Shown here: piece by piece, positions 6,077-62,622 of the stretch | Position numbering within the stretch: position 1 is the first letter of the stretch | Layout: each line of letters begins with the position of its first letter | NCBI GenBank assembly: GCA_003635265.1 | Contig: PYIZ01000009.1 | Location: 22,270 to 86,269, forward strand | Source of the DNA: Candidatus Poribacteria bacterium | GTDB taxonomy: Bacteria; Poribacteria; WGA-4E; PCPOR2b | Reading direction: 5' to 3' | Length of the DNA stretch: 64,000 nt | Notes under the pieces: model-generated | What the model was told of the DNA's origin: nothing | Databases searched by the model: none | The model's input: the letters and a program-made list of their open reading frames with translations, nothing else | Program-made: the position numbers and the translations under genes

Positions 6077-6408
6077 GGCAGATCCCTTCGTTTGAGATGA
6101 CCGATTTTGGGGTCAGGATTGGTAAACTCCTATTTTGCCATGACGGGCTTCCGAAAGTCAAGGGGATAGCTGTATTGAATTAGGGTTATTTAATGAGATG
6201 TCGGGATTCGGATATCCCTCTTACAGGATGCCCCTATGTATCGGTTGCAAGTGGAAGTGGTGAATTATTCTCTTTTTTGGCTCTCTTTTTTGAGTAATTC
6301 TTGCTATAATGTATATTACAGCGATCGAAGGCAAGGTAGCATCAAATCTAAAAAAATACAACGCTATTGATGAGACTATCAAACTGTGTAGGCGAAAGGA
6401 TCGTTATT

Positions 6409-7815
6409 ATGATCGATCAGCAGTATCTTCTCAATGACGAAGAGGTGCAGAACTTCATCAAAAATGGGTATATCACAGTCCACCCCGATTTACCCGACCT
6501 CCACGAAGAAATCTACCGGGAGACTGCAGCGATATTTGAGAAAGAGGGGGATCCGCGGAATCATATCCTTCAAAAAGTTCCTGCGCTGCGTCAGGTGTTT
6601 GCCCATCCGACTGTCCGCGGTGTCTTGACCAGTCTTTTGGGACCAAATTACATGATGCACCCGCATCGCCATGCACACATGAAGCAGCCGGGACAGAAAG
6701 GTGGTGCTTGGCATCAGGATGGCAGATCGAAACATTTCACAACGAAAGACCACGGGTGGCTTTTTGAATGGAGACGACACCATCGGTTTCGGTCTGTTTG
6801 GGCGTGGTATTATCCGCAGGAGGTCACCGAAGATATGGGGCCGACAGCGGTGATACCGGGGGTACAGTACTACGATTTGGAAAGTATGCGGCACTACAAC
6901 AATGCCTACGCTGATCCGAAGATTGGCGCGCTGCTTTGTGGAAAGGCGGGCACGATAACGATCGGTCATTACCATCAGTGGCACAGCAGTTGGGGGACAA
7001 ATCACAGCAACAAGAATCGTTACATGATCAAGTTTCTCCTCACCCGCACAGAAGAGCCGCAACAGCCCTCTTGGAACGCCAACGGCATGATCTCAACAGA
7101 TACTAACGACGCACCGACACCCGGTCAAGGAGCGGTCTGGAACCATGTGTGGGGTTGGCTAAAGGGAGATAATGCGGCGATGGAAAAAAATAGGGGTAGA
7201 AATGGAAACCACGTTTCTGAGTTGATTGCCGCATTGCGTGATACCTCCGCGCCGGCTCGTCTGAATGCTGTCTATGCCCTCGGAGCAATTGGTGAGTCTG
7301 CTGTGGATCCACTGATAGAGGTGCTGCGTCAGACTGCTGAACCTGTTGAGACTACGGAGGAGCCTATCTTAACCCATGCGGCGTATGCCTTGAGTGCGAT
7401 TGGGGCAGCCGCTGTTCCTGCATTAACTTCCGTACTGAACGACGATGCGGCGTGGTGGATGCGTGCGACTGCAGCGGATACCTTGGGAGATATCGGTGAA
7501 CCCACTGCAGAAGCGGTTCCCACGTTGATTCAGGCTCTGGATGATTCGTCTGAGTGGGTCCGTCGTAATGCCGTGAATGCGTTAGGAACTATTGGCGAAG
7601 GGACGGAGGCATTGAAAACGGCTTTGAAGGACGACCATCCGTTGGTTCGCTGCAATGCGGTGAATGCACTAGCAAGAGCGTGCAAAGGAGTTGATACAGA
7701 AATTGATGCTGCTAGCCGTGCACTATCAACGGTGATGTATGACGACGAATACGCTATCATCCGTGAATACGCCATTGCTGCGCTAGAAGAGATAGATATA
7801 GACGCTAGCAATTAA
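6409..7815 (+). CDS. Phytanoyl-CoA dioxygenase (PhyH)-like Fe(II)/2OG oxygenase domain fused to five C-terminal PBS-lyase HEAT-like repeats
   Basis: N-terminal domain has the WHQDG (HxD) motif. The C-terminus has repeated ...NAVxALGxIG units (LNAVYALGAIG, THAAYALSAIG, RRNAVNALGTIG, VRCNAVNALA). The ORF opens at 6367, but the RBS favours ATG 6409 (MIDQQY). Confidence 0.7.
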   Translation: MIDQQYLLNDEEVQNFIKNGYITVHPDLPDLHEEIYRETAAIFEKEGDPRNHILQKVPALRQVFAHPTVRGVLTSLLGPNYMMHPHRHAHMKQPGQKGGAWHQDGRSKHFTTKDHGWLFEWRRHHRFRSVWAWYYPQEVTEDMGPTAVIPGVQYYDLESMRHYNNAYADPKIGALLCGKAGTITIGHYHQWHSSWGTNHSNKNRYMIKFLLTRTEEPQQPSWNANGMISTDTNDAPTPGQGAVWNHVWGWLKGDNAAMEKNRGRNGNHVSELIAALRDTSAPARLNAVYALGAIGESAVDPLIEVLRQTAEPVETTEEPILTHAAYALSAIGAAAVPALTSVLNDDAAWWMRATAADTLGDIGEPTAEAVPTLIQALDDSSEWVRRNAVNALGTIGEGTEALKTALKDDHPLVRCNAVNALARACKGVDTEIDAASRALSTVMYDDEYAIIREYAIAALEEIDIDASN

Positions 7816-10111: not shown

Positions 10112-11005
10112 TTGAGAGCCTGTTTTAAAAGTCATTTGATACGGTTTTGCATCAAGTAAATGGAAGCAATGTACACCATCGCTTCAGCGGTTTCGGCAGA
10201 GCGTTCATAGTCCAAAGTCAATCGGCGAAACCGACCGAACCAAGAAAAGGTGCGTTCCACAATCCAACGTAATGGAACGACCACAAATCCCGATTGCCTA
10301 AGAGATGGGGCAATGTCCAATTGACACTGATGCGCCATATATAACCAGTCGCCTAATTTTCCACGATAGCCAGCATCGGCGCAGACTAACTGAATCGTTA
10401 TGTGCCACCTAAAGATTTCTGTTAATAACTCTATTGCGACTTGGTTATCACTGATATTTGCATCAGTGACCTTCACCCGCAATGGAATGCCAATTGTATC
10501 GGTGACTATGTGGCGTTTACGACCTTTGACTTTCTTATGTGCATCAAAGCCGCGAGTATCTGCCAGTTCGGTCGTTTTAACGGATTGGCTGTCAATGATA
10601 GCTACTGTCGGTGAAGGTGCTTTGCCAATATCACAACGGATTTGCTCGTGAAGTGCTTGATGAATCATAAGCCATGTGCCATCAGTTTTCCATTTTCTGA
10701 AATGGAAGTAGACCGTTTGCCATGGCGGCATCTGATGCGGGAGCATTCGCCATTGACACCCTGATTTGACTATATAAAAGATAGCGTTGATAATTGCACG
10801 CATCTTCCACTTGAGAGGTCTACCTACCGGCGAAGGTTTTGGCAGATAAGGTAACAGTCGGCACCATTGGGCATCCGTCAAATCCGTGGGATAGTTTGTT
10901 TGGGTCATGTTTATGCCTTTCATTGGAGTTGGATTCACTGCTCCAATGATTGAACGTAAACATTAACTCTTGAGTAGAAGTTTTCTTTTTAAAACAGGTT
11001 CTGAG
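10112..11005 (-). mobile_element. IS5-family insertion sequence (about 0.9 kb, single transposase ORF), apparently intact
   Basis: Imperfect terminal inverted repeats GAGAGCCTGTTTTAAAAG (10114-10131) and CTTTTTAAAACAGGTTCTGAG (10986-11005). They flank a 268-aa DDE transposase. Confidence 0.8.
10132..10938 (-). CDS. IS5/IS1031-group DDE transposase
   Basis: LTDAQWCRLLPYLP...GRPLKW...RAIINAIFYIVKSGCQWRMLP is the hallmark N-terminus of IS5-family transposases. DDE region ...ADAGY.... Confidence 0.85.
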   Translation of the reverse strand: MNPTPMKGINMTQTNYPTDLTDAQWCRLLPYLPKPSPVGRPLKWKMRAIINAIFYIVKSGCQWRMLPHQMPPWQTVYFHFRKWKTDGTWLMIHQALHEQIRCDIGKAPSPTVAIIDSQSVKTTELADTRGFDAHKKVKGRKRHIVTDTIGIPLRVKVTDANISDNQVAIELLTEIFRWHITIQLVCADAGYRGKLGDWLYMAHQCQLDIAPSLRQSGFVVVPLRWIVERTFSWFGRFRRLTLDYERSAETAEAMVYIASIYLMQNRIK

Positions 11006-11135
11006 GGCGGGGCAAGATGCCCCGCCTACGATGGGTTTGGAGTCTGAACATGTCCCTCGACGCCCGATGAATCCCCGACTTATCGGGACGGGCGGGCAAC
11101 TACAAACTGAACTGCGTAACTCCTATACTATTAGG
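11004..11135. repeat. Composite intergenic repeat, copy B (3' portion), abutting the IS right end and carrying an inserted REP unit
   Basis: GCGGGGCAAGATGCCCCGCCTACGATGG...CTGAACATGTCCCTCGAC...CGATGAATCCCCGACTTATCGGGACGGGCGGGCAA...CTACAAACTGAACTGCGTAACTCCTAT. A weaker 5' remnant (GCAACTACGGTGAAGGGG) is at 10085-10111 on the other side of the IS. Confidence 0.7.
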
Positions 11136-12402
11136 ATTTTCTGAGTTTTCCGTTCGCGTCGGGCAAGGGAGACTGTGGATGCATCGCTCGTGCTCTTGCC
11201 CGGAAGTCTAGCCCTTTTTCACCGAGTGCTTGCAACTCCTCTGGGCTGCCGTCAAACCATTCCTTCAGTCGTCGGCGGGCGATGTGGACGTGCAACACCT
11301 CGTCTGCCCAGTCGAAATCCTGAAGGGTTGTCATCAGGGGATGGCGAGCGGTATCGCGACAAAACTCGAATTCCTCACGCTTGCCGGGTGGGTATTTCAT
11401 GAGGCCTGCTTCGACACCGAAAAGCATGGCGTATAACTCCAAGGGATCCATCTTAAAGAGATAGGCAGACTCCCAATCGCGTATTGGCATCGCGGAACGT
11501 TCATCGAAGATATCCTCTGCCGCTGCCTCGCCAAAGACAGAATGGCGCATCTCGTCCCAGAGGTGACGGGAAATATCGGCATAGAACTCCCACGGCTGGT
11601 CTTTCATTTCGTACAGCACAAATCCCAACGCTTCGGCAATTGTGGTTTCTCCGAGACGGGTTGCAATCATCTGCATCAATCGCTCCTCCACCCGCTCGTT
11701 ATCAACGTGGATAATATCCCACACACGCGGAAAGGTATCATCACGGGTAAGTTGTTTTGGAATCAGATATGGGGTTGTTGATCGAACGGGGTGGAGTGTA
11801 TCAAGATTCACTTCGCCTGTACCATCAATGCCTCCGGCAGCCTCAAGCAAGTTGTGGAGCGTCGCACTCCAAGCCTTTGCTTCCGATTCTTTTTCCGGCG
11901 TATCGACAACGTCGTCATAAGCGGTTTCTAGTAGGCGCAGCCCTTCCTCTACTTCGGCGATGACGGTTTTCAGGACGCGCACGGTGGGATAGTCCGCCAA
12001 ACCGTTGGTTGTATTGACATACCTTTGATATGCTTCCAAAAGCGCAGGTTTGAATACCTTTGTCAATCCCGCTAGCAGTTCGGCGGTATTCGCCGCGTGC
12101 ATCGCTTCATCGAAAACGATTTGCAAGAAAGCATCAGGAGCTTGATACGCTTTTGTCTTGGAAACGCGCAGCTCGGGCAATCGGACTTTGAATTGAGACG
12201 CATATTGTGAGTCTTCGTATTGTAGTCTCGCTAGCAATACTTTGACATCTCGCTCCGGTGTGCTGATGATATGGGCAGCTTGCAGAAACATTAATCGTTC
12301 TGCTGCGTAGGCGAATCGATGGATTCGGGCGGCGCATTGATCAACGCTGAATCCCTGCCGTGTTGCATTCTGCAAGCCTGCGTATTGATAGGTTCGATTC
12401 AT
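11131..12402 (-). CDS. Hypothetical protein with ferritin-like diiron signatures (putative oxygenase)
   Basis: 423 aa with three ExxH motifs (EAMH, DEMRH, DEVLH). No other recognisable family motif. The diiron assignment is inference. Confidence 0.35.
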   Translation of the reverse strand: MNRTYQYAGLQNATRQGFSVDQCAARIHRFAYAAERLMFLQAAHIISTPERDVKVLLARLQYEDSQYASQFKVRLPELRVSKTKAYQAPDAFLQIVFDEAMHAANTAELLAGLTKVFKPALLEAYQRYVNTTNGLADYPTVRVLKTVIAEVEEGLRLLETAYDDVVDTPEKESEAKAWSATLHNLLEAAGGIDGTGEVNLDTLHPVRSTTPYLIPKQLTRDDTFPRVWDIIHVDNERVEERLMQMIATRLGETTIAEALGFVLYEMKDQPWEFYADISRHLWDEMRHSVFGEAAAEDIFDERSAMPIRDWESAYLFKMDPLELYAMLFGVEAGLMKYPPGKREEFEFCRDTARHPLMTTLQDFDWADEVLHVHIARRRLKEWFDGSPEELQALGEKGLDFRARARAMHPQSPLPDANGKLRKS

Positions 12403-15542: not shown

Positions 15543-16427
15543 TCAATCCGCTCTGTGCATTACTACGCCCTTGGGATTCTCAAAGGCATCAATCCAGAGA
15601 CGGCACCACTCCTCGTGATCGTGCATCACACTGTCCGGATCGCGTTGGCTGCGCACGACAAAATCCGGATGTCCTGTACGACCCGTGTGTTGACCGATTG
15701 GATGGTAGCGCAGATCCATTGACCAACGGCACTTATCTGAGCGGTTGGGCATCCCACGATGTGGTGTGAAGCGGCTCATCAGTACCAGATCCCCTCTGTA
15801 GCAGACCATCGGCACAGGTTCAATCTCCGGTATGTCTTCAGGATAGATGGTGGTTCCGCCTTCGGGTCTATGCCGCAGATATCCTTCTTTGACCACGCCG
15901 GGCAAAATCTCCAGACACCCCATCTCGGCGGTAGCATCCCCCAATGGCAGCCAGCAGGTAATGATGTCTGAGCCTTCCGCCTCTGGCATGATAACCCCGG
16001 CGTCTTGATGCAGGGGACCAACATGCGAAGCGGGGTTGCTGTCCTCATAGTAGCGGATTGGGGGCGTGGGTCGCAGGTGTTGGATTGGATTGCAGATGAT
16101 TTCCGGTCCAAGGAGTGATTCGATGACATCGAGCAGGTTCTTATTGTACAGAAATTCAAAAACCGCTTTACCGCGATAGTTCATGATGTCAAGGCCGTTG
16201 CCAATCTCTCTGGATTGCGCGAAAAGTCGTCCGTATCGGGTTTCAAACGGCTGATCTTCACACAGGTCTTCGATCTTCCCCTCTGCCTTCAGTTCGTGTG
16301 CCCGGCGATCGATGAAGTCGCATATCTCATCAATTACCGGCTGCAAATCCTCATCATTAAGAGCATTTTTGGCGATGAGGACACCCCGTGTGTGAAATTC
16401 TTCAACCTGTTCAGTTGTTAACTGCAT
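15543..16427 (-). CDS. Phytanoyl-CoA dioxygenase (PhyH)-family Fe(II)/2OG oxygenase
   Basis: 294 aa. GPLHQDAG (HxD) and a distal H within a double-stranded beta-helix pattern. Confidence 0.75.
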   Translation of the reverse strand: MQLTTEQVEEFHTRGVLIAKNALNDEDLQPVIDEICDFIDRRAHELKAEGKIEDLCEDQPFETRYGRLFAQSREIGNGLDIMNYRGKAVFEFLYNKNLLDVIESLLGPEIICNPIQHLRPTPPIRYYEDSNPASHVGPLHQDAGVIMPEAEGSDIITCWLPLGDATAEMGCLEILPGVVKEGYLRHRPEGGTTIYPEDIPEIEPVPMVCYRGDLVLMSRFTPHRGMPNRSDKCRWSMDLRYHPIGQHTGRTGHPDFVVRSQRDPDSVMHDHEEWCRLWIDAFENPKGVVMHRAD

Positions 16428-21564: not shown

Positions 21565-24500
21565 CTACAATTCTGCCACGATTTCCATCCCTACCCGGTG
21601 CTCCGGTTTGTTCTGTTTCGTTGAAAGTAGACGATAATTGAATCGTAGTAGTAGATCCGTCACCTTCCTAACTTTATAGTCCGCAGTGGTGCGGACTTCA
21701 TGGCTCACCCCTTCGTAGAAGTTGTATCGCGTAAAGGGAAAGCCTCCTTTACTATTTCCGTGACTGAGTCGATAGGTAAAGTCAAACCGTCCTTTGTTGA
21801 TAAAGGAATAGGTCAGCCGATTTTCTAATGAGAAAGTTCGGGTTCGAGCTTCCGGCGTGTCATCAAGATGTTCACGATCGGCAGTAGATTCGTGGATGCC
21901 GGCAACGCCAAGTTGTAAAACACGGCTGAGTTCATAGTTGAATTCAAGCGTGTTTGTACGTTCGAACTGTGTCAAATCAGAAATCGCTTCTGATGCGTTC
22001 CCCTCAGGATCGAGCTCAGTAAACTGTTCCTCTTCCCACCGCTGTTCCCATCTTGCCTTGAATGAGAGTTTCGATGTCGGGTTCAGTGTGAAATCCACCT
22101 CCCAATCGCGGCTGTGTCGTCGTCGTTCCCTGTTATTAATCCGCTTGTTAAGGAGACGGTTGGTATCATATTTGAGGTCCAGACTCAATAGCGGCGACGG
22201 GGAAAAGTCGAGCCGATACCGCTGGTTGATTCGCCCAAAAATTGTGCGTTCGTTTCGCAGATTGTGCAGCAGATAGAGGCTTGACGGATCTGGATCCTCC
22301 TGCTCCTCCGTTATATTGACGACAGCCTGCCCGCGAACGGCGTTTGCTAACCGTACTAAGTTGCTTTGAGTTTCGGTCTGCTTGGTCCCAGAGGTTATGC
22401 CACCCCTCCGACGCGACATGAAGCGGCGGGGTTGGAAACGCAGCCTCACCTTCATATCAATGGCAGAAACCGGTTTGTCCTCGACATTCTGGATGAATTT
22501 GATATAGTCTCCCTCCTCAAAATCTTCGCGGTAGTGCAGATCGTCAATTTTGACATAATGCCCCTCACCCGGCTTAATCTCCCGCCCTGTGAATGGGTTG
22601 ACGTTTGTGAAAATCTCGCGTCGTTCTGTCGCCAATTTTTTGTCGAGTTCATAGGTGAGCTGTCCGTCCAACGCTCGGTTGAATGGCGTGAGGCGCATTT
22701 CGATATCCGCCAACTGCGTCCTTGAGTCGGAGTTTGGTCCTCGCTCCGCTTTGAATACCCGACGGGAGATATTGGTTGAGACGTTTGCCCACTTACGTGG
22801 TTGAGAAAAGAGCCCCACGGTCCATGTCCTTGCGTTCGTCGCCTGCTGCCAATCCGAGAAGCCTAATGCCTTTCCGTCAACGGTGAGCAGGGGTTCTTTG
22901 TTGAAAGCCCTTTCAATTGCGTATTTTGTGTTAACTGACACCCATCGAAAATCGACCAGATCGAGCCGCCCCGTTGAAATGTTCCGTTTTCGGTTGAGGT
23001 TCACGTTATCATCGAAATCGAGGTCAATCGCCTCCAACTGTTCGATGGAGGCGTTCAGATTGAACAGGCGAATGCGCTGAGAGAGTTGTCCGTGCCTCCG
23101 TGCTTTGCGAAATTGGTCCTGTCCCCTGACTTTCGACGTGCTGCCTCGATAATCGCCTCTGAGACGGGGAAAGTATGTGCGTTTCGTCAACCCTTCCCGT
23201 GGATTGAAATCGAACCCGCCGTTAAGGTTGTTGCGCAGGGTAAAATCGGTGAGTGGAGTTGCTGTATCGGAACCGTTGAGACCTTGCTGATCTGCTGATT
23301 TCTTGAAATGTTCCTCTGTGCGTCCTAAACCGTAATCGAGTCTAAGCCAATTGACCGGCTTTACCTGTAGGTCAAGATCTACGGACTTCTCATCGGGGGT
23401 TTGGGATGGACCTACATCACCCAATAGATACAGGTCGTCAAACTGTTCATCGGTGTACTGTTCTTCGTATCGAAACCGTGTACGGTTGGCACTTGATGCA
23501 CCGACAGGTACAAAGTCCGCGTCGAGGGATCGGAGTTCTATATTCAATAGCAACTTTTCCGTTGATGAATTGGCGAGGAATTTCCAAGCTCGACTCAATG
23601 TTTTGCGATCTTGGTTGGAGAAGGTGTTCTGATCCAATGCACCGAAGGCGATCTGTCCTTCGAGCGTCGGGGCATGTTGTAAGAAACCTTGACTTTCGGT
23701 GAAATCGAGGCGTCCGTTGATGTCCCATACGGTGCGTCGTTGTGGCGCGATGAGAAGGTTTCCATCCCCGTCTGCGTCCAGTTCGTTTCTCTGTAGTTCC
23801 TCTAACTCTTCTTCATTTATAATGATGAACGCATTTTCAGGATCATTTAGATCCGATTCAACAGCATAGCCGAATCCAACCGTGACACGCTCGCCGGGCA
23901 GATTCAGCGAACCACTGACACCTTGCAGATTTCGCTGGTACGCCAAGTCTTCGGGGATATATTCAAAATCGACACGAATCACATCATTGCTCGTGATTAA
24001 GTGTTTGCTTGTGAATTCAATAATCGGGTCGCCGTAGTCACGGATCACGTAGTCATTGTTTTCTCCACGCCGCATCCGTTGACCGTTCAGCCAAACAATT
24101 TCAGTTCCCGCTTTCACGATAACAAACTCACCTTCGACATCAATGCGATATTCGCTACGCCCCTCCTCACCCCGAATTGTCTTACTGGCAGACTGTCCCT
24201 TGGGGATAGCACTCGGTATGAGATGAAATTTTCCCCACTTGAAATCGCCTGTGACCTGCACCCCTTCTAGCGCGCGGTTAAAGAATATATCCGTATCGCC
24301 TAGCGATCCCTCAAAATCGCCCAACAATCCTGTAACGTTTGGGCTTGTGATGCGGATAAGTTTCTGATCAATATCTTGGATATCTTCGGTTGTGCCTTCA
24401 GGTTGGATGGGCAGGTCTTGATCTGAAAGGAGTGCTGTGACGCTGATGTTCTCTGAGACTTTGCCATCAACGCTAATTCGCAAAGCGTGCTCCGGGGACA

Positions 24501-25017
24501 GCGATCTCTGGCTGCCTGCCGAGATGCCGAATGTCTGCGTTCCTGTGACATGCACCGGCGGCAGTGCTGATTCCGGTAGACGTTGTTGGATCAAATCTGC
24601 GCGGGGTTCAAGTTTGACTTGGCTGGACGGTTGGTCCAACGACTGATCTTGTCGGAAGAGATCTCGTTTATACCCCTTTTTAATTGCAAAGGGCAAGACT
24701 CGATAGCTAATTTGTGCAGAGGTTTCCGGTGGGTAGTCTTTCAGGAACGTGACCGTTCCTGCACCGTAATCGATAAGGTAGTCCAAGTTTTTGGTGAGTT
24801 TCACACCGTTAATTGTTATATGTTCACTATCATGGATGGGGGGCCAATGCTTGAGAATAAAAGGGTCAGGAATATCTTTGAATCGGATAGATTCGGTTTT
24901 CTGCAAAAGGGAGAGGGGTGGTAATTGGAGCGGGTCGCGCTCGGATTCTGCGGCGTGGGAGACGGAGATGAGAATGCCAATAAGTAAGAAATGCGATGTT
25001 GCGAGAAGTTTCCCCAT
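21565..25017 (-). CDS. Large (1150 aa) secreted, probable outer-membrane protein of unknown function
   Basis: N-terminal signal peptide (LLIGILISVSHAAE). Composition rich in N/D/R/Y/F amphipathic beta-strand pattern. No enzymatic motifs. An outer-membrane barrel (LptD/SprA-like) is inference only. Confidence 0.4.
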   Translation of the reverse strand: MGKLLATSHFLLIGILISVSHAAESERDPLQLPPLSLLQKTESIRFKDIPDPFILKHWPPIHDSEHITINGVKLTKNLDYLIDYGAGTVTFLKDYPPETSAQISYRVLPFAIKKGYKRDLFRQDQSLDQPSSQVKLEPRADLIQQRLPESALPPVHVTGTQTFGISAGSQRSLSPEHALRISVDGKVSENISVTALLSDQDLPIQPEGTTEDIQDIDQKLIRITSPNVTGLLGDFEGSLGDTDIFFNRALEGVQVTGDFKWGKFHLIPSAIPKGQSASKTIRGEEGRSEYRIDVEGEFVIVKAGTEIVWLNGQRMRRGENNDYVIRDYGDPIIEFTSKHLITSNDVIRVDFEYIPEDLAYQRNLQGVSGSLNLPGERVTVGFGYAVESDLNDPENAFIIINEEELEELQRNELDADGDGNLLIAPQRRTVWDINGRLDFTESQGFLQHAPTLEGQIAFGALDQNTFSNQDRKTLSRAWKFLANSSTEKLLLNIELRSLDADFVPVGASSANRTRFRYEEQYTDEQFDDLYLLGDVGPSQTPDEKSVDLDLQVKPVNWLRLDYGLGRTEEHFKKSADQQGLNGSDTATPLTDFTLRNNLNGGFDFNPREGLTKRTYFPRLRGDYRGSTSKVRGQDQFRKARRHGQLSQRIRLFNLNASIEQLEAIDLDFDDNVNLNRKRNISTGRLDLVDFRWVSVNTKYAIERAFNKEPLLTVDGKALGFSDWQQATNARTWTVGLFSQPRKWANVSTNISRRVFKAERGPNSDSRTQLADIEMRLTPFNRALDGQLTYELDKKLATERREIFTNVNPFTGREIKPGEGHYVKIDDLHYREDFEEGDYIKFIQNVEDKPVSAIDMKVRLRFQPRRFMSRRRGGITSGTKQTETQSNLVRLANAVRGQAVVNITEEQEDPDPSSLYLLHNLRNERTIFGRINQRYRLDFSPSPLLSLDLKYDTNRLLNKRINNRERRRHSRDWEVDFTLNPTSKLSFKARWEQRWEEEQFTELDPEGNASEAISDLTQFERTNTLEFNYELSRVLQLGVAGIHESTADREHLDDTPEARTRTFSLENRLTYSFINKGRFDFTYRLSHGNSKGGFPFTRYNFYEGVSHEVRTTADYKVRKVTDLLLRFNYRLLSTKQNKPEHRVGMEIVAEL

Positions 25018-27143: not shown

Positions 27144-29192
27144 ATGACGACAAGCATTTCTACAAATGGAGCTTCCATGCCTGAAATGGTTTCCATCAAG
27201 GCGACTGACATCTCTGCGCCGCCCGGATGGGCGCTGATGGAGCGTAACCTGATCGACCTCATGGAGGAAGCGGCACCCATAATGGTCAAGAAGTACACAG
27301 AACCGGGGGGCGCCCTTTACTTTGCAGAGGACTTCGACGATCTGTACGAGCAGTTCTACAACTGGTGCTTGTTTTACGCCATCGGTGCCGATGAGAGTTT
27401 GCTTGACCTTGCGTTACAGGGGTGGAACGCGTCGACCCGAATTAGTGACGACAGCTTCAATCATCGCCTTCGACACAATAATTTTACAAAAGTGTTCAGA
27501 CCGTCGATGCACAACGAATTCTGGAATCTGGCGCAATCTACGGAGTGGCATCATCTTGGCGAAGGCAACATGGCGTTCTACGATTTCGGTGTTGCTTGTC
27601 CCACCGTCTCGGAGAACGTCCGTCGAGCGCGGAGATTTGCTGCGATGTTCATCGGCGAGGATCCGGAAGCCCCCAATTATGACCCTGAGTATAAAATCCT
27701 CCGATCCCCGTTTCACTCCAGTCAGGGACCGAGATTACATGCAGATGCGAATTTCGTGAACACCATGCTGCTCGCCGGAAGATATCTAGGTGGCGAGGTC
27801 AACTATTACGGTGTACGTGCGAGTCTTTATCCAATCGTCGAAGATCTCGAACTGAATTGGTATGAAGACCCAAAACGCAGGGAAGAGATTGTGGAATTGT
27901 TTGAGAAGATGGTCTTACATGCCGACACCCCCAATAGTTTAGGTGCTACTGCGCTCGTCACGAATGCTTACCTGTATACAGGCGATGAGAAGTACAAGCG
28001 GTGGGTATTGGAATACACGGAAGCATGGTTGGATCGGATGCGTCGTAATAATGGGATTATGCCCGATAATGTGGGACATACGGGAAAGATTGGGGAGCAC
28101 CGCAATGGCGTGTGGTGGGGTGGACAGTATGGCTGGAATCACTATCAGGGCTATAATATTATGTTTCACTCGCTCACCATCGCCGCTGAATGTGCCTTGC
28201 TACTTACTGGCGACTTCGGCTATCTTGAACTTCTCCGCTCACAGATTCAGCTGCTGTTGGAAAATTCGATAACACGGGAAGATGGGCAACTTATCATGCC
28301 GACGCGCTATGGTCCCGATGGCTGGTGTTATGACCCGCCTGTGGGTCCTTCCAACGATGATATTCTACCCAAGAGAGGTGTCTACACAGGACCGATTCCG
28401 TGGCGAATGCAGGAACTTGCCCACCTGTATCATGCGTCGATGTCCCCTGAGGATTATGAGCTAATCACACGGATACGAGATGGCGAGGTCGAGCGCGATT
28501 GGAATGAAATTGGGGACAGGGGTGGCGAGAAGAACGGGGGCGAAACAGAATTCGCCCGTTTTCAATACTACGATGGGTTGAATCCCGATTGGCCCGAGAA
28601 GATACTGAGTGCGGAATACCGATGGGCGTTGGAGGCATTCGACAAGATGCGTCTCGACGATCGTGCTGTTGAAGAAATTGTTACAACGAACTTCTTTCCG
28701 CCGAATCCTGTTTTCACGAAGGGTTTGACGCAGGTCACGATGGGTGCGCCGCAATCGGTTTACAATGGCGGACTGCTCCGAGCGACTGTACGCTATTATG
28801 ATCGGGACAACGCTCGCCCCGGCTTACCGGGCGATGTTGCTGCCCTCGTCGATAAATTGGCGTCAGATGGTGTCGGAATCCAACTGGTGAACCTCAGCAC
28901 GACTGAAACGCGAAACGCCATCGTGCAGGCGGGTGCTTTCGGAGAACATCAGTTTACTGGACTCAAATACCGAGAGATGAATCAAGAGGAATTACGTCAA
29001 AATCCGTATGGATGGCTCCGGTCGGAACGAGAATACGCTGACAAAGAAGTTCCGGTCAATGGGAAGTATTTTGCAGTCGAACTTCCGCCTTCGACATCTG
29101 TCCGGCTGGAGGTTGGCATGCGTCGTTTTGTGAATGATCCGAGCTACGCCTTCCCGTGGCATGGGGAGACGATTCCAGTGCCGTTTCAATAA
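27144..29192 (+). CDS. Hypothetical 682-aa cytoplasmic protein, possibly an (alpha/alpha)6-barrel glycan-active enzyme
   Basis: Clean long ORF, W/Y-rich (WWGGQYGWNHYQGYN), no signal peptide. Function not recognisable from sequence. Confidence 0.3.
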   Translation: MTTSISTNGASMPEMVSIKATDISAPPGWALMERNLIDLMEEAAPIMVKKYTEPGGALYFAEDFDDLYEQFYNWCLFYAIGADESLLDLALQGWNASTRISDDSFNHRLRHNNFTKVFRPSMHNEFWNLAQSTEWHHLGEGNMAFYDFGVACPTVSENVRRARRFAAMFIGEDPEAPNYDPEYKILRSPFHSSQGPRLHADANFVNTMLLAGRYLGGEVNYYGVRASLYPIVEDLELNWYEDPKRREEIVELFEKMVLHADTPNSLGATALVTNAYLYTGDEKYKRWVLEYTEAWLDRMRRNNGIMPDNVGHTGKIGEHRNGVWWGGQYGWNHYQGYNIMFHSLTIAAECALLLTGDFGYLELLRSQIQLLLENSITREDGQLIMPTRYGPDGWCYDPPVGPSNDDILPKRGVYTGPIPWRMQELAHLYHASMSPEDYELITRIRDGEVERDWNEIGDRGGEKNGGETEFARFQYYDGLNPDWPEKILSAEYRWALEAFDKMRLDDRAVEEIVTTNFFPPNPVFTKGLTQVTMGAPQSVYNGGLLRATVRYYDRDNARPGLPGDVAALVDKLASDGVGIQLVNLSTTETRNAIVQAGAFGEHQFTGLKYREMNQEELRQNPYGWLRSEREYADKEVPVNGKYFAVELPPSTSVRLEVGMRRFVNDPSYAFPWHGETIPVPFQ

Positions 29193-30555: not shown

Positions 30556-31731
30556 CTAATCCGGTAACGGCTCTAGTGATGCACCGATAGGACGCGGTCC
30601 CGTTGGACGCCAAGGAATCGAATCGTAGGAGCGGTATGCAATATCAAGATGCGGTGTTTCGAGACGGATATAGCCTTGATGGCGTGAATCCAAAGCGGCT
30701 TCCAACACACCCGACGTAAGCAGTGTCCGCTCGACTGGATAGGTTGGCACTCCGGTGACGAACATCTCTTCGATGTTCAAACTGAGATAGCTGAAGTGGG
30801 GATGTGGATCTCCGTGTAGATAGAATTCTGAGCCGTAGATCTCACCATCAACCCTTGCTGCGTAAGCCAAGTCCGTTACATAGCCATTTAGCATTAGGGC
30901 GGCGCCGCGAAATCCGTCCCGATATTCTAGAAGGAAAAGCGCGGGATTTTCGCAGTGATCCTCCATGGCTCCAGAAGGTTTATTCTCAATTGGCGCACAA
31001 GCAGCTTCCGCGAGCTCTCGCCACCATGCTCCCGCTTTCCCTGCTTCCCATACCGCATCACCTTCCAAGCAGGTCACGGCTGCGACACCGGTTTCTCCAC
31101 CAACGCGCCGTTCGATCATACACTGAAGCGTTTCCAGCGTATGAAAACCGTAAATGTCCAGTCCCGAATAGCCGATTGAGACAGCCTCTGTGATTGGCGC
31201 GTCTAACGGGTGCTCCAACCACGGGTTTCGATAACCGAAAGGCAGCGATGAGCCCGCCATAAACGGGGCACCGAGCTGCGCCGCACGGTCAAACATCCAT
31301 TTGGCATCGCGCCAATTATAGGACAGGTGTTTGTCATTAAAGACGGGGACACCTCTACCACTTGTGGAAAAAACGCCGCAGATCTGCTCCATGAAGTATT
31401 TGCGCGGATAGAGTTGCTGATCTTTTTCGTTCCAAGCGTAGTCGCCGTGTTCTCCGATCAGGAGGACACCATCGACAGCAAGTTCGCTTCCACCGAGCGT
31501 CAACGCCTTGACGATACTCGGATAGATCGGCACGTTATGTGCTGCGGCGAACCCACGACTCAGATCGTTTTCGGGGAACTGATCGACGTACATCGACGCA
31601 ATTTCAATACGTGGTTGAATCAGCCCATCGTCTGTGGGAATCCCTTTCAGGAACTTGGTGACAATTACATCGGCGTGCGACCCCGGACGGTACTCGGTGA
31701 TGATTGCTGCAATCTTTTTGCGCTCAGACAT
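30556..31731 (-). CDS. Hypothetical 391-aa protein
   Basis: Uninterrupted ORF with an RBS-like upstream sequence and no recognised motif. Separated by 14 bp from the downstream Zn-ADH gene, so probably one operon. Confidence 0.3.
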   Translation of the reverse strand: MSERKKIAAIITEYRPGSHADVIVTKFLKGIPTDDGLIQPRIEIASMYVDQFPENDLSRGFAAAHNVPIYPSIVKALTLGGSELAVDGVLLIGEHGDYAWNEKDQQLYPRKYFMEQICGVFSTSGRGVPVFNDKHLSYNWRDAKWMFDRAAQLGAPFMAGSSLPFGYRNPWLEHPLDAPITEAVSIGYSGLDIYGFHTLETLQCMIERRVGGETGVAAVTCLEGDAVWEAGKAGAWWRELAEAACAPIENKPSGAMEDHCENPALFLLEYRDGFRGAALMLNGYVTDLAYAARVDGEIYGSEFYLHGDPHPHFSYLSLNIEEMFVTGVPTYPVERTLLTSGVLEAALDSRHQGYIRLETPHLDIAYRSYDSIPWRPTGPRPIGASLEPLPD

Positions 31732-45251: not shown

Positions 45252-45280
45252 TTGACTTTTTGATAGCTTCAGTTTACTAT
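45252..45280 (+). promoter_or_regulatory. Sigma70-type promoter driving the EutN-like gene (and probably the kinase/regulator operon)
   Basis: TTGACT, 17 bp, TACTAT. About 100 bp upstream of ATG 45382. Confidence 0.5.
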
Positions 45281-45381
45281 ACCTGTGTCCATATAATTTT
45301 GTCAATAATGTTTTCATGATGCATTATGTTTTACCGAATTTGCACTTTTCGGGTAAAAAAATCAACAGGGAAAGAGTTCGT

Positions 45382-45669
45382 ATGACGGTTGGAAAAGTTG
45401 TGGGAACTGTCGTTGCCACGCGAAAAGATGAAAAACTCGTCGGTAGTAAGTTGCTGATTGTGCAGGATACCGAGCTAGATGGAACGCTCCTCAGTCGATA
45501 TACGGTCGCTGTTGATGCTGTTGGTGCGGGTGTCGGCGAGTTGGTGCTCACCGCAGCAGGAAGTTCAGCACGTCAAACTGACGTCACCAAGAACAAACCT
45601 ATTGATGCGGTGATCATGGCAATTGTCGATTCGATTGAGGTGCATGGGGAAATCCAGTTTCAGAAATAG
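45382..45669 (+). CDS. Bacterial microcompartment vertex protein (BMC-P; EutN/CcmL/PduN family), an orphan copy
   Basis: MTVGKVVGTVVATRKDEKLVGSKLLIVQ...YTVAVDAVGAGVGELVLTAAGSSARQ...PIDAVIMAIVDSIEV follows the EutN/CcmL pattern closely. No BMC-H/T shell genes are in the window. The ORF opens at 45316, but the RBS favours 45382. Confidence 0.8.
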   Translation: MTVGKVVGTVVATRKDEKLVGSKLLIVQDTELDGTLLSRYTVAVDAVGAGVGELVLTAAGSSARQTDVTKNKPIDAVIMAIVDSIEVHGEIQFQK

Positions 45670-45713
45670 CCGTTGAAACACTTCTTTGGGGGACATCGGT
45701 TGTCCATATCAAC

Positions 45714-47456
45714 ATGGTTGCAAATTCAACAGATTTACCTCTTAAAATTGAACTCATCAAGCGAATCCGTTGGCTTGTTAAGCTCCGTTGGATTGCTATA
45801 ACGGGTGTCTTGCTGACTGTCAGCATTGCAAGTTGGGGACTCCACATCATTGACAATCCAACGCCGTTGTACATCATTGCGGCGTTGATGACGCTTTACA
45901 ACTTTGAGCCGCAAATCTATCCCAAACATCTTACGGAAAAGCCGCTCGTATCAATTCAGCGACATGCGGGTAGACATATTATCCTAGATTTGTTCTCTTT
46001 GACGGCGCTCATCCACTTTAGCGGTGGCGTTGAGAACCCGTTTATTTTTTATTTTATCTTTCATCTTGTTATTGCGAGCATACTCCTCTCTAAAAAAGTT
46101 AGTTACATCCTTGCCACACTGAACACAATTCTTTTAAGTGCCCTTATTTTTTTCGAGTATTACCACGTCCTGCCCCATTACCATCTACAGAATTTTCTGC
46201 CTGCAACGCTCTGGCAAGATCCGATTTACATTTCAAGTGTGCTGTTTGTGTTTACCAGCACCCTGTTTTTCTCCGTCTATCTTGCAACATCCATTATGGA
46301 CACCGCGAGGGCGCGTGAGGCAGAAACCCGCGAATTGAAAGACAATCTTGAGGAAAAAGTCGTTGAATTAGAAGAGACAAGAGGAGCAGTGCTTTTCGAG
46401 CGAAATAAACTCACGTCAATTATTGAGTGTATGCAGGAGGGGGTTATCTTTGTTGACGACAAGAACCATGTGTCACTCTTTAACAAGGCGGGACAGCAGA
46501 TCCAAAAAGAGCAATTCGGACTTGATACAGAAGCCATCCAATCCCCAGAGGCTGACGGGGTACTCCTGCAGATCGCAGAGGATTTATCGAAGGGACACGC
46601 GGTGATTGAACAGCAGAGTCTACAGATTAAGGATAAATTCTTTGAAAACACTTATGCCGCCGTGCGCGACAGGGATGAAAACTATTTAGGCACGGTTTTG
46701 GTTTGCCGCGACGTGACCGATCGGAAACGGATGGAACAGCAGATGGTTCAATCAGAAAAGATGGCAGCAATAGGTGAATTGGCATCAGGGGTTGCACATG
46801 AGATCAATAATCCTCTTGACGGGCTACTCAACTGTATCCTTCGGATAAAGCGCGATCCGCAGAACGAGCGACAGACCAAAGAATACTTGGGGCTCATGGA
46901 GGAAGCTCTCAGGCGGATTGAATCGACCGTTGGGCAGCTTCTTAATTTCTCACGTCAACGTGATTTGGAACTCACGTTAGTTTCTCTCAATGAGGTTGTC
47001 GATGAAGTTGTTAGTCTGATTGTGTATAGTGCTGACGAGAAAGGTATTCAGATTGAGAAGCATTTCCAAGAAGAACTAGACCTAATCCGTGGGGACAAAC
47101 ACCTATTAGAGCAGGTTGTCCTGAACCTTGCCCTCAATGCGATTGCGGCTATGCCCGATGGTGGTGTATTGACCTTCAAAACTGGGGAGATTGAATTTGA
47201 TGCGTTATTTGGTAAGGCAACGGTTTTCGTTCAAGTAACGGATACAGGAATCGGTATCCCCATGTCCGTCCAAGATCGGATTTTTGACCCGTTCTATACC
47301 ACAAAGATTACTGAGAAAGGCACGGGGCTTGGACTCTCGGTATCCAACCGAATAATCGGACAACATGAAGGTGTCATCGAATTCGATAGTAAAATTAAGC
47401 AGGGTTCCGCGTTCACCGTTAAATTACCGATTAGGAGAGGGGTGGAAAAGGATTGA
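45714..47456 (+). CDS. Membrane-bound PAS-domain sensor histidine kinase
   Basis: About 190-aa N-terminal polytopic membrane region, then PAS (FERNKLTSIIECMQEGVIFVD), HisKA H-box (HEINNPL) and HATPase (GTGLGLS). Confidence 0.85.
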   Translation: MVANSTDLPLKIELIKRIRWLVKLRWIAITGVLLTVSIASWGLHIIDNPTPLYIIAALMTLYNFEPQIYPKHLTEKPLVSIQRHAGRHIILDLFSLTALIHFSGGVENPFIFYFIFHLVIASILLSKKVSYILATLNTILLSALIFFEYYHVLPHYHLQNFLPATLWQDPIYISSVLFVFTSTLFFSVYLATSIMDTARAREAETRELKDNLEEKVVELEETRGAVLFERNKLTSIIECMQEGVIFVDDKNHVSLFNKAGQQIQKEQFGLDTEAIQSPEADGVLLQIAEDLSKGHAVIEQQSLQIKDKFFENTYAAVRDRDENYLGTVLVCRDVTDRKRMEQQMVQSEKMAAIGELASGVAHEINNPLDGLLNCILRIKRDPQNERQTKEYLGLMEEALRRIESTVGQLLNFSRQRDLELTLVSLNEVVDEVVSLIVYSADEKGIQIEKHFQEELDLIRGDKHLLEQVVLNLALNAIAAMPDGGVLTFKTGEIEFDALFGKATVFVQVTDTGIGIPMSVQDRIFDPFYTTKITEKGTGLGLSVSNRIIGQHEGVIEFDSKIKQGSAFTVKLPIRRGVEKD

Positions 47457-48772
47457 AAGTACTGGTTGTTGATGATGAAAAAATCAAACTAATTACACTA
47501 CGCGATGATTTGCGCGAGGCGAACTACGATACTATTGCGGTTGAATCTCCAGCGATTGGACTACAACTTGTGCAGAACGAACATTTTGATGTTCTGGTTA
47601 CCGATTTGCGCCTGCCGAAGATGCACGGAATTGAATTTCTCAAGCGCGTCCAGAAGGAGCAGCCCCATATTATTGTGATTGTCATGACCGCCTATGCGAG
47701 TGTCGAAACCGCTGTGGAAGCGATGAAATTTGGGGCGTATAACTATATCAAGAAACCGTTTTCCAGCGAAGAACTGATTCAGATGTTGGATAAACTGAAA
47801 ATGCTCCACGGTAGAGATAAACAGCGTTCACAACTAAAAATTCCGATGAAAGGACGCTCTCCATACCATCATATTATTGGGAAAAGTCAAGCGATACAAG
47901 ACCTCTTTGACCTGCTTGAAAATATCTCCGACACCCAGAGTACTGTGCTAATCTACGGTGAACATGGTACAGGAAAGACGCTCGTTGCAAAATCAATTCA
48001 TTTTAACAGCACGCGTAGGCTCCATCCCTGTAGAATCGTAAACTGCTCAGGAATACATGCCGACACGTTGGATCGAGAACTATTTAGAGACAAGCAAACG
48101 GCAGGCGAGTTTGGGCGTAAAGGGACCCTTTTTCTTAAAGATATTGATGCACTTCCTGTTGCACTACAGATTAAATTCCTACAGGTACTGGAGAGGCAGC
48201 AGCTAAACCTAAGCAGAAGCGCACAAAGGGAGGATGTGCGGATTATTGCTGCGACAACCAAAAACTTGCGTACAAAGGTTCATAATGGGGAATTTCGAGA
48301 CGATCTCTTCTACCGTCTAAACGTTGTCCCGATTTTTCTGCCACCGTTACGTGAACGGGTCGAGGATATTCCTCTCTTAATTAATCACTTTTTAGATTTA
48401 TTCTCACCCAATACCCCTATTCACATTGCTCCCGAAGTTGTCGAGGTGCTCACAGCATATCCATGGCCCGGCAATGTCCGCGAATTAGAAAATGTGATCG
48501 AACGGCTTGTAACGATTGGAGACAAGACAGATATTACCACGGACGATATTCCGCTTGAGTTGAAACTACCAGCGCAGGTCAGTTTAGATGAGACGTTGAG
48601 TGAGATCTCCTTCCAAGAGATTATCCAGTCGACAGAGCGCGAACTCATCGGTTGGGCGATGAAAAAAGCAAAGGGGAACAAAACACAAGCCGCAAAACTG
48701 CTCAAAATGAAGCCCTCAACCTTCCGTGATACCCTTGCCAAGTATATTAACCAGATCGAATGGCAGACGTGA
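47453..48772 (+). CDS. NtrC-family sigma54-dependent response regulator (REC-AAA+-Fis HTH)
   Basis: REC domain (VVDDE...D at LVTDLRLP). AAA+ Walker A GEHGTGKT. C-terminal HTH (KTQAAKLLKMKPSTFRD). The GAFTGA loop is degenerate (QTAGEF). Overlaps the kinase gene by 4 bp. Confidence 0.8.
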   Translation: MKVLVVDDEKIKLITLRDDLREANYDTIAVESPAIGLQLVQNEHFDVLVTDLRLPKMHGIEFLKRVQKEQPHIIVIVMTAYASVETAVEAMKFGAYNYIKKPFSSEELIQMLDKLKMLHGRDKQRSQLKIPMKGRSPYHHIIGKSQAIQDLFDLLENISDTQSTVLIYGEHGTGKTLVAKSIHFNSTRRLHPCRIVNCSGIHADTLDRELFRDKQTAGEFGRKGTLFLKDIDALPVALQIKFLQVLERQQLNLSRSAQREDVRIIAATTKNLRTKVHNGEFRDDLFYRLNVVPIFLPPLRERVEDIPLLINHFLDLFSPNTPIHIAPEVVEVLTAYPWPGNVRELENVIERLVTIGDKTDITTDDIPLELKLPAQVSLDETLSEISFQEIIQSTERELIGWAMKKAKGNKTQAAKLLKMKPSTFRDTLAKYINQIEWQT

Positions 48773-49359
48773 AGGCGAGGGAGGCAAACCAAATGAATCA
48801 GAAGCAGGAACGCGAGCGGCTTCGGGGGGAAGTCCTCCGCAAGAGGGACAGCATCCCGCTAAGTGTGAGAACCGAACTGAGCCGACGGATTGTCCACCAT
48901 GCAATCAACTGGATTGAGGTGAACCGAGCCGATGCCGTGCTAATCTACCTTAGTATGCGAAGTGAGGTGGAGACCGGTGACTTGCTTAATTACCTGTTGG
49001 CTCAGAATAAGATTGCGCTTGCCCCTGTGATGCGTATGAAGCAGCGAGACCTGACACCATATCGTATCATGGATGCAAAAGAAGATCTTGTTCTCCATCC
49101 ATACGGCATGTACCAGCCGAATAATGAAACCTGTCCCTCTTTCCCTTTGAACCAGATTGATTTAATCTTTGTTCCCGGTGTTGCTTTTGACCTCCGGGGC
49201 TACCGCATTGGATACGGTGCGGGCTTCTATGATCGATTCCTGCCACAATGTCCGCAGGCAGTTTGGATTGGTTTAGCTTACGAAGCACAAATTGTGACAA
49301 ATACCTTTCCGCAGCCTTGGGACGTTCCCCTCCATCAGATCCTCACAGAGGCTGCGTGA
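48760..49359 (+). CDS. 5-formyltetrahydrofolate cyclo-ligase
   Basis: 199 aa. ...LIYLSMRSEVET...PGVAFD..GYRIGYGAGFYDRFL is the MTHFS signature. Confidence 0.8.
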   Translation: MADVKAREANQMNQKQERERLRGEVLRKRDSIPLSVRTELSRRIVHHAINWIEVNRADAVLIYLSMRSEVETGDLLNYLLAQNKIALAPVMRMKQRDLTPYRIMDAKEDLVLHPYGMYQPNNETCPSFPLNQIDLIFVPGVAFDLRGYRIGYGAGFYDRFLPQCPQAVWIGLAYEAQIVTNTFPQPWDVPLHQILTEAA

Positions 49360-49448: not shown

Positions 49449-49476
49449 TTGACATGGGAGGCGCCTATGGTATAAT
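49449..49476 (+). promoter_or_regulatory. Consensus sigma70 promoter of the dcw cluster (no mraZ present)
   Basis: TTGACA, 16 bp, TATAAT. Followed by a 7-bp hairpin CCCTTCC...GGAAGGG (49517-49545) that abuts the GGAGG RBS of rsmH. Confidence 0.65.
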
Positions 49477-60474: not shown

Positions 60475-60491
60475 TTGGCATATCGCTTGCT
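60475..60491 (+). promoter_or_regulatory. Candidate sigma54 (-24/-12) promoter upstream of glnA
   Basis: TGGCAT-ATCGC-TTGCT matches TGGCAC-N5-TTGC, with GG and GC spaced exactly 10 nt. About 200 bp upstream of the glnA ATG. Confidence 0.5.
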
Positions 60492-60688: not shown

Positions 60689-62131
60689 ATGACACCAAGT
60701 GAAGTCGTTGCGCTTGCAAAAGAAAAAGAGGTCAAAATTGTTGACTTTAAATTCACGGATCTGCCTGGCATGTGGCACCACTTTTCGATTCCCGCAACAG
60801 AGTTAGAGGAAGACCTGTTTGAAGATGGACTCGGTTTTGATGGTTCAAGTATTCGTGGTTTCCAAGCGATTAACGAAAGCGACATGCTCCTTTTCCCGGA
60901 TCCGGATACAACCATTGTGGATCCGGTTTGCAAAATTCCGACCCTCAGTCTTATTTGCAACATTAAGGATCCAATTACCCTAGAAAGCTATAGTCGAGAT
61001 GTGCGGCATATCGCTCAAAAGGCGGAAGCGTATCTCAAGAGCACTGGAATTGCGGATACGAGCTATTGGGGACCTGAAGCTGAATTTTTTATTTTCAACG
61101 ATGTTCGTTATTACCAAAATCAGCATTCGGCCTTTTATTCCGTTGATTCTGTTGAAGGCAGCTGGAATACAGGTAAAGGGAGTTGGAATCCAAACACAGG
61201 CGACTATGACGCGCCGAACCTCGGATACAAACCGCGTTACAAGGAAGGGTATTTCCCCGTACCGCCATCGGATACACTGCAAGATATTCGATCTGAAATG
61301 ATTCTCAAGATGATCGATTGCGGGGTTGATGTAGAGGTTCACCACCATGAGGTCGGCACCGGTGGTCAGGGTGAGATCGATCTCCGGTTTGATACCATGA
61401 CCACGATAGGCGATAAGCTGGCGCTGTACAAGTACATCATCAAGAATACAGCCCGTGCCCACAACATGACGGCGACCTTTATGCCAAAGCCACTTTTTGA
61501 AGACAACGGCTCAGGCATGCACTGTCATCAAAGTTTATGGAAGGATGGGAAAAACATCTTCTACGATCCGCAGGGATATGCCGGGTTAAGCGAAACCGCG
61601 TTGTATTACGCCGGTGGTCTCCTTAAACATCTACCGTCGCTGTGCGCTATCATTGCACCGACAACCAATTCTTACAAGCGGTTGGTCCCGGGCTATGAGG
61701 CACCGGTGAATCTTGCATATTCGCAACGAAACCGGAGCGCATGTGTCCGTATTCCTGTATACTCTCAGAGTGAGAGAGCGAAACGACTGGAACTCCGTAC
61801 ACCAGATCCTTCCTGTAACGCATATCTCGCCTTTAGCGCAATGCTGATGGCGGGTCTTGACGGTATCCGGAATCAGATTCACCCCGGTGAACCGCTTGAT
61901 AAAGACCTGTACGATCTGGAGCCAGAGGAACTGGCAGAAATTGAATCAACGCCGGGCTCCTTAGCTGAGGCACTTGATGCCTTAGAGGACGACCATGACT
62001 ACCTGCTCGAAGGCGATGTGATCACGCAGGACGTGATTGATACATGGATAGAGTATAAACGTGAAAACGAAGTCGATGCAGTCAACCTCCGTCCGCATCC
62101 ACACGAATTTCATCTCTACTATGATATTTAA
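60689..62131 (+). CDS. glnA: Glutamine synthetase type I
   Basis: 480 aa, with the GSI beta-grasp and catalytic motifs ([25 protein letters not shown] adenylylation-region residues). Confidence 0.9.

Positions 62132-62280: not shown

Positions 62281-62622
<342 letters not shown>

Follow-up and report, generated by a model that had tools for sequence, protein, structure and literature searches.

Why does a gene for a vertex protein of bacterial microcompartments (BMCs) stand apart from other shell genes, at the head of a row of genes that encode a membrane histidine kinase and an NtrC-type response regulator? The question is raised by a 64,000-nt stretch of DNA from a Candidatus Poribacteria bacterium (assembly GCA_003635265.1, contig PYIZ01000009.1, positions 22,270 to 86,269; hereafter the window), in which a 95-residue BMC-P protein of the EutN/CcmL family is encoded at 45382..45669 (+). 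Poribacteria are dominant, uncultivated sponge symbionts, and their microcompartment genes lack a known function. An original prediction, made from the DNA letters, described an orphan vertex gene coupled to a sigma-54 two-component system, and suggested either a regulatory module for a distant microcompartment locus or a lone pentamer with a non-shell role. The evidence set out below favors reading the gene as part of a scattered Poribacteria shell-gene set, heading a four-gene block with an atypical regulator of sigma-70 type. We put the probability of this reading at roughly 0.75.

Identity of the vertex protein gene

The EutN_CcmL profile PF03319 spans the product of the 45382–45669 open reading frame (ORF) end to end (profile positions 1–83 of 83, 101.6 bits, E = 3.5e-29; cut-off 25 bits). 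A longer in-frame ORF from 45316 was set aside because nearly all homologs are 95 residues long. The closest solved structure is a Haliangium ochraceum shell pentamer (5V74), matched over residues 1–95 at 58% identity (E = 1.3e-29). An AlphaFold model of the protein (pLDDT 86.4) was superposed on CcmL (2QW7) and 5V74 with a TM-score of 0.92 and an rmsd of 1.3–1.5 Å, and has the small single-domain β-barrel fold of the solved pentamers. Two short motifs, GAGVGE and IVD, are present and are nearly invariant across the family alignment. Sutter et al. (2017) reportedly assigned GAGxGE to BMC-P and described I-V/I-D, here IVD, as a further motif of the pentamer–hexamer interface. GAGxGE is also named in PMC13370225, where it is ascribed to 'BMC-H', apparently by a slip. 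Judged by sequence and predicted fold, the gene encodes a genuine BMC-P vertex protein, as originally proposed. We infer that this protein is incorporated into a shell and caps its vertices.

An identical BMC-P protein was encoded on at least 22 contigs. Nine DNA alleles differed at 44 sites, all of them third codon positions, and specified the same protein, in a sample biased by the retrieval of these contigs by protein identity. The kinase and regulator genes beside them were not selected in this way, and their products were 90–98% identical. That these neighbors are only so similar indicates strong constraint on BMC-P.

Isolation from other shell genes

Searches by tblastn with PduA, CcmK2, EutM, Haliangium (HO) BMC-H and Escherichia coli EutN as queries found no BMC-H gene and no second BMC-P gene in the 64 kb. 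Nor did an aldehyde dehydrogenase, PduL or class II aldolase turn up when 46 window ORFs (all except a few short ones) were scanned with Pfam. Both results bear out the prediction that hexamer genes and signature enzymes are missing from the window. The shell-gene-free stretch around the BMC-P gene measures 45 kb upstream and ~22 kb downstream, of which 18 kb lie inside the window; the remainder is covered by an identical Tara scaffold, reaching approximately window position 68,000, in which no shell gene was found.

The gene might be regarded as the edge of a complete microcompartment locus lying just beyond the window. Both flanks are longer than the 20-kb limit used by Axen et al. to define one locus (2014; PLoS Comput Biol 10:e1003898), and a locus edge is therefore extremely improbable. 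No signature enzyme was encountered in the 45 kb upstream or the 18 kb downstream, the downstream neighbor is the dcw cell-division cluster, and none of the Poribacteria loci retrieved had a further shell gene or a signature enzyme in the ±10 kb around it. With a single shell protein class and no further shell gene within 20 kb, the locus is satellite-like.

The closest BMC-P relatives outside Poribacteria are 47–62% identical. In ~65 of 75 non-Poribacteria loci the ortholog was positioned directly downstream of a BMC-H gene whose product is 57–95% identical to HO BMC-H; ~2 kb farther on, a tandem BMC-P pair was often present. The window gene is therefore the ortholog of a main-locus pentamer gene, separated in Poribacteria from its hexamer gene. 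Likeness to the Haliangium BMC-P (5V74, 6MZX) comprises the 58% identity over 95 residues, the fold and the GAGxGE and IVD motifs. Context sets the two apart: Kofleriaceae orthologs (L026 and L060) directly follow BMC-H inside the main locus, whereas the window gene is separated from BMC-H and stands first in a regulatory block.

Detached or tandem-only BMC-P genes were also observed in other organisms (L016, L022, L044, L045, L066, L067 and L094). One of these is a lone 101-residue BMC-P, 66% identical, in an unrelated organism (L094:6585-10306 and L095:5258-8979). Its neighbor is an FtsH gene with an intein that includes a LAGLIDADG domain. No BMC-H gene was found within 10 kb of this BMC-P gene in L094 or L095, and it is another scattered vertex gene.

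Orthology to main-locus pentamers bears on whether the protein could act outside a closed shell, as a stand-alone oligomer or as a partner of membrane-associated BMC-H sheets. PF03319 genes outnumber PF00936 genes in Poribacteria and no main locus is recognizable (PMC3909097). Ring-shaped BMC-H immunolabel was located at the membrane, with no polyhedral bodies reported (PMC5087111). Such a role nonetheless seems unlikely for a protein that shares 58% of its residues with a pentamer resolved in place within a shell structure and retains the interface motifs. Selection on its sequence also appears very strong (in alleles sampled by protein identity), and its orthologs elsewhere are found inside ordinary BMC-H/BMC-P loci, its closest outside relatives directly after BMC-H. 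Published single-cell genomes of Poribacteria, moreover, do contain BMC-H with PduL and a tandem BMC-P pair at other sites (PMC3909097). The non-shell half of the original prediction gained no support; its other half, a satellite belonging to a distant set of microcompartment genes, is the reading that fits.

The four-gene block and its candidate promoter

Four co-oriented, closely packed genes make up the block. BMC-P is followed 44 nt past its stop by the start of a gene for a 580-residue membrane sensor histidine kinase (45714..47456, +), with the Pfam domains 6TM_PilS, PAS_10, HisKA and HATPase_c and the H-box GVAHEINNP. The third gene (47453..48772, +), which begins with TTG and overlaps the kinase stop by 4 nt, encodes an atypical NtrC-family response regulator of 439 residues (Pfam REC, Sigma54_activat, AAA_lid_14 and HTH_8). 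This order and orientation of kinase and regulator had been correctly recognized. The final gene, at 48760..49359 (+), encodes a 5-formyltetrahydrofolate (5-formyl-THF) cyclo-ligase (PF01812, 139.6 bits). Depending on whether it starts at 48760 or, as on related contigs, at 48793, it overlaps the regulator gene or follows it after a gap of 20 nt. Because the gene spacing is tight, we infer that the block is co-transcribed as one unit; no convincing terminator was found between any of the four genes.

Upstream of the block is a divergent GFO/IDH/MocA oxidoreductase gene, and downstream is the dcw cluster (rsmH, ftsL, ftsI, murE, murF and mraY). A perfect 12/12 match to the sigma-70 consensus, TTGACA-16-TATAAT with TG, is located at 49449–49476 (+), between the cyclo-ligase gene and rsmH. 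The dcw cluster is presumably transcribed from this site, which delimits the block on its downstream side. In E. coli, ygfA is linked to ssrS. A 6S RNA or other RNA gene beside the cyclo-ligase gene was ruled out here, as Rfam gave no matches anywhere in the window.

A candidate sigma-70-type promoter, TTGACT-17-TACTAT, is found at 45252..45280 (+), ~100 nt before the BMC-P start codon. The original prediction had called this site near-consensus; the site is present, and with a 9/12 match it does not merit that description. Promoter-like sites in the region were not enriched over shuffled sequence (6 found, 7.0 ± 2.3 expected), and a better site (11/12) is present on the opposite strand, facing the divergent oxidoreductase gene. 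The site is kept in close relatives free of insertion. At the aligned position, the more distant L012, L013 and L014 carry TTGAnn-17-TATAAT, which in L014 reads TTGAAA-17-TATAAT.

In three close relatives an IS200/IS605-type element, inserted after TTAC at the equivalent of window position ~45277, splits the -10 hexamer and leaves the EutN gene intact (L001:9039-10000, L009:8383-10000 and L010:8687-10000). The elements in L009 and L010 carry a TnpB/Cas12f-like ORF. L001, L003 and L009 have a second insert, ~100–330 bp long, which separates the candidate promoter from the ribosome-binding site. The intergenic region upstream of EutN is an insertion hot spot, yet EutN is identical. Transcription of the block probably starts at a sigma-70-type promoter of its own, a function suggested by the sequence of the site.

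An NtrC-family regulator without sigma-54 motifs

The Sigma54_activat domain (PF00158) of the regulator was detected (127.1 bits), but comprised only 154 residues over 167 profile positions. Comparison with Aquifex NtrC1 (1NY5) located the loss: 11 residues of the L1 loop are deleted and GAFTGA is gone. The sequence QTAGEF, previously interpreted as a degenerate GAFTGA, is a remnant of the sequence flanking the deleted loop. The Walker B motif reads TLFLKD in the window regulator versus TLFLDE in Aquifex NtrC1, and Sensor-I has changed from ATN to ATT.

The same losses were evident in 120 orthologs, the top 120 matches of a database search, all from Poribacteria and at least 60% identical. A GAFTGA-like motif was present in none of them (0/120). 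Their Walker B pair occurred in 21 variants, the eight commonest being KD, QD, DD, TD, AN or AD and none DE, and most share the ATT of Sensor-I. The receiver aspartate motif was intact in 118. A working sigma-54 system, as originally predicted, was ruled out on the basis of the lost GAFTGA loop and Walker B Asp-Glu pair and of a -24/-12 scan that yielded no match upstream of EutN.

Across the window, -24/-12 matches did not exceed chance (38 found versus 32.5 ± 5.5 expected). The scan gave one good intergenic match, a -24/-12-type element TGGCATATCGCTTGCT (GG-N10-GC, with one consensus mismatch) at 60476–60491 (+), ~200 nt upstream of the glutamine synthetase gene glnA (60689–62131, +), which precedes the P-II gene glnB (62284–62622, +). 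In L015, a paralog of the regulator 5 kb away retains GAFSGA and Asp-Glu. The glnA element hints that sigma-54 and a conventional activator operate elsewhere in this organism; in view of the element and the paralog, the phylum probably uses sigma-54 at other sites. For a regulator that has neither GAFTGA nor the Walker B Asp-Glu pair, a search for -24/-12 promoters at microcompartment loci, as had been proposed, is therefore misdirected.

Enhancer-binding proteins that have lost GAFTGA, with or without changes in Walker B, are defined as atypical (PMC6158489, PMC10274813). Members such as VpsR, NtrX, TyrR, HupR and the NtrC proteins of Rhodobacter capsulatus and Caulobacter work at sigma-70 promoters (PMC6158489, PMC10274813). 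The window regulator combines NtrC architecture, an intact receiver and an intact helix-turn-helix domain with the absence of GAFTGA, and from its sequence is classed as an atypical NtrC-family member rather than a sigma-54 activator. By analogy it most likely works with sigma-70. NtrC architecture without GAFTGA is shared with Vibrio cholerae VpsR, Brucella NtrX, R. capsulatus and Caulobacter NtrC and E. coli TyrR, and non-canonical Walker B residues with VpsR. The window family differs from these proteins in its deletion (9–11 residues), in its PilS-like membrane kinase and in being known here through sequence.

Like VpsR, NtrX and R. capsulatus NtrC, the regulator is most likely a DNA-binding activator or repressor of sigma-70 promoters that is switched by phosphorylation, and would need neither sigma-54 nor ATP hydrolysis. 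A search for its binding site in the EutN region yielded just two short palindromes, and in an upstream alignment with distant Poribacteria the promoter-like site and the ribosome-binding site were the only motifs in common. Targets of the regulator should be looked for at sigma-70 promoters and not at -24/-12 elements. The family also provides a caution against automatic annotation of such regulators as 'sigma-54-dependent'.

Conservation of the block and the place of the two-component system

All 10 close contigs inspected (up to 1.1 Mb) carried the same block in the same neighborhood. The four genes were also found together in four of five other GTDB Poribacteria species (L011, L012, L013 and L015), with the kinase gene directly after EutN in all four. 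Identities to the window proteins were 71–74% for EutN, 67–69% for the kinase, 57–60% for the regulator and 44–50% for the cyclo-ligase. The block was seen again in a further sponge lineage. Only the block itself is common to the window lineage and the other species, whose flanks differ. Every Poribacteria lineage examined except one carries the four-gene block. Complete Poribacteria chromosomes with the block include OX638351.1 and OY763324.1, and CBDHGE010000001.1 is a sequence without the kinase–regulator pair.

The exception is the fifth species, L014, in which the cyclo-ligase gene (L014:10317-10901) follows EutN after 29 nt and the kinase–regulator pair is absent. Both genes flanking the locus in L014 are shared with L012 and L015, and the pair therefore represents a clean insertion or deletion. 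The same shorter arrangement was published for a Poribacteria single amplified genome (SAG), 3G (PMC3909097). The pair is therefore dispensable. Synteny of the predicted trio thus extends to close contigs, four of five species and the sponge lineage and fails in L014; the predicted coupling to a two-component system is seen in tight packing and co-orientation and is not obligatory.

Such dispensability raises the possibility that the two-component system is a passenger. The ancestral unit, and the one that matters functionally, would then consist of BMC-P with the cyclo-ligase, or of BMC-P alone, and the pair would control something unconnected with microcompartments, for example an envelope or cell-surface response. 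L014 keeps both L012/L015 flanks and lacks exactly the kinase–regulator pair, its EutN gene is still preceded by TTGAAA-17-TATAAT, and SAG 3G likewise lacks the pair. The PilS-like membrane domain of the sensor points to a membrane-borne signal. Outside the phylum, a kinase or regulator homolog was directly beside the BMC-P ortholog in none of 75 loci, and weak homologs (26–38% identity) were located 1–10 kb away in ~11 of them. The pair has nevertheless stayed between the same two genes while its orthologs diverged to 57–69% identity and the flanks were reshuffled, and the spacing of the genes indicates a single transcription unit. NtrC-type regulators also adjoin other Poribacteria shell-gene sites (Kamke et al., PMC3909097), which likewise speaks against a mere passenger. 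We consider this alternative a serious one, at somewhat below even odds.

In all Poribacteria loci seen, whether or not they had the kinase–regulator pair, the cyclo-ligase gene came after BMC-P (or the regulator gene); it followed BMC-P in none of the 75 non-Poribacteria loci. Sponge-associated Poribacteria additionally carry genes for a PduO-type cobalamin adenosyltransferase (PF01923) and an HpcH/HpaI aldolase, 0.5–3 kb downstream of the block and on the opposite strand (PF01923/aldolase sites L091-L093:14449-17168, L011:6785-7327, L012:14478-15020 and L015:14472-15014). The PF01923 family is often linked to microcompartments. No PF01923 gene was found near the block in the window lineage.

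Relation to published Poribacteria shell genes

The arrangement is already described, as Poribacteria BMC group C of 2014. Kamke et al. (2014; PMC3909097; PLoS One 9:e87353) distinguished four shell-gene regions in Poribacteria, groups A–D. Group A consists of BMC-H followed by PduL, group B of a tandem PF03319 pair beside another NtrC-type two-component system, and group D is a further region (PMC3909097). In group C of SAG 4E (or0690-or0693), a PF03319 gene is followed by genes for a PAS_10/HisKA/HATPase_c kinase, a REC/Sigma54_activat/HTH_8 regulator and a 5-formyl-THF cyclo-ligase (PMC3909097, Text S1 and group C table). In group C of SAG 3G, the single PF03319 gene has the cyclo-ligase gene directly after it. 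Across SAGs 3G and 4E, PF03319 is represented by three genes and PF00936 by one or two (PMC3909097).

The window shares with group C the phylum, the four genes and their order, and the SAG 3G variant matches L014. It differs in representing another Poribacteria lineage, with the dcw cluster downstream and other flanks; window EutN is 71–74% identical to the Poribacteria species representatives fetched. Kamke et al. do not appear to have remarked on the loss of GAFTGA and the Walker B residues from the regulator. Three points are added here: the block is conserved phylum-wide, the kinase–regulator pair is polymorphic for presence or absence, and the regulator is atypical, the last a modest detail.

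In broader catalogs, all Poribacteria loci were classed as satellite-like by Axen et al. (2014; PLoS Comput Biol 10:e1003898). In the FRAG class of Sutter et al. (2021; PMC8217296; Nat Commun 12:3809), known from many candidate phyla, shell genes occupy as many as six sites and include a BMC-P triplet. The Poribacteria shell genes resemble FRAG and satellite-like loci in their scattering over sites far from known enzymes, in the BMC-P triplet and in their occurrence in a candidate phylum. Poribacteria go unmentioned in the main text of the 2021 catalog, and for the window lineage the triplet and BMC-H are presumed from the published SAGs. The general picture of scattered shell genes, already catalogued, is unchanged by our results. 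Transcription of the SAG 3G group C gene in the sponge was reported by Jahn et al. (2016; PMC5087111, supplement) at 0.38× the housekeeping mean, against 1.34× for BMC-H.

A probable scattered shell-gene set with a regulatory block

According to the reading we prefer, the Poribacteria chromosome would carry the hexamer gene together with PduL at one place, the tandem BMC-P pair at another and a single BMC-P gene at a third, and the single BMC-P would cap the vertices of a shell made from BMC-H encoded elsewhere. This ortholog of the main-locus BMC-P, which in other phyla sits directly behind BMC-H, now leads a compact row of genes. The sigma-70-driven unit would then also yield a membrane sensor kinase, a DNA-binding regulator and a folate-salvage enzyme. 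That the regulator controls shell genes, as its adjacency suggests, has roughly even odds or less.

Four points weigh against this reading. The promoter match is weak and a mobile element disrupts it in the three close relatives mentioned. For the window lineage, BMC-H, PduL and the tandem BMC-P pair rest on published SAGs of other Poribacteria. The kinase–regulator pair is absent from exactly this site in L014 and SAG 3G, and its tie to BMC-P may therefore be positional only. Finally, no icosahedral microcompartment was seen in Poribacteria, where BMC-H immunolabel was near the cell membrane (PMC5087111).

A bolder proposal is that the degenerate NtrC-type pair acts as a dedicated switch for a fragmented microcompartment. 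In response to a signal sensed at the membrane, it would adjust how much of the main vertex protein is made, and perhaps also the expression of the BMC-H/PduL and tandem BMC-P genes at their distant sites; the invariant pairing with the cyclo-ligase would tie the organelle to folate or one-carbon metabolism. If true, shell closure or number would be regulated by a sigma-54-independent descendant of enhancer-binding proteins. We regard this proposal as improbable. A partial parallel is offered by EutV/EutW of the Enterococcus and Clostridium eut loci, a kinase–regulator pair encoded among shell genes that could tune their expression. EutV is an ANTAR RNA-binding antiterminator in a complete locus, unlike the NtrC-family DNA binder beside a single vertex gene described here.

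Other features of the window

Five long ORFs in the window had no Pfam match at E ≤ 1e-4. Their products are 1150, 682, 524, 423 and 391 residues long, encoded at 21565–25017 (-), 27144–29192 (+), 4502–6076 (-), 11131–12402 (-) and 30556–31731 (-), respectively. The window also encodes two PhyH-domain proteins, one fused to HEAT repeats (6367–7815, + and 15543–16427, -), and a transposase of the IS4/IS5 family (10132–10938, -). PhyH is the most abundant family in Poribacteria according to Kamke et al.

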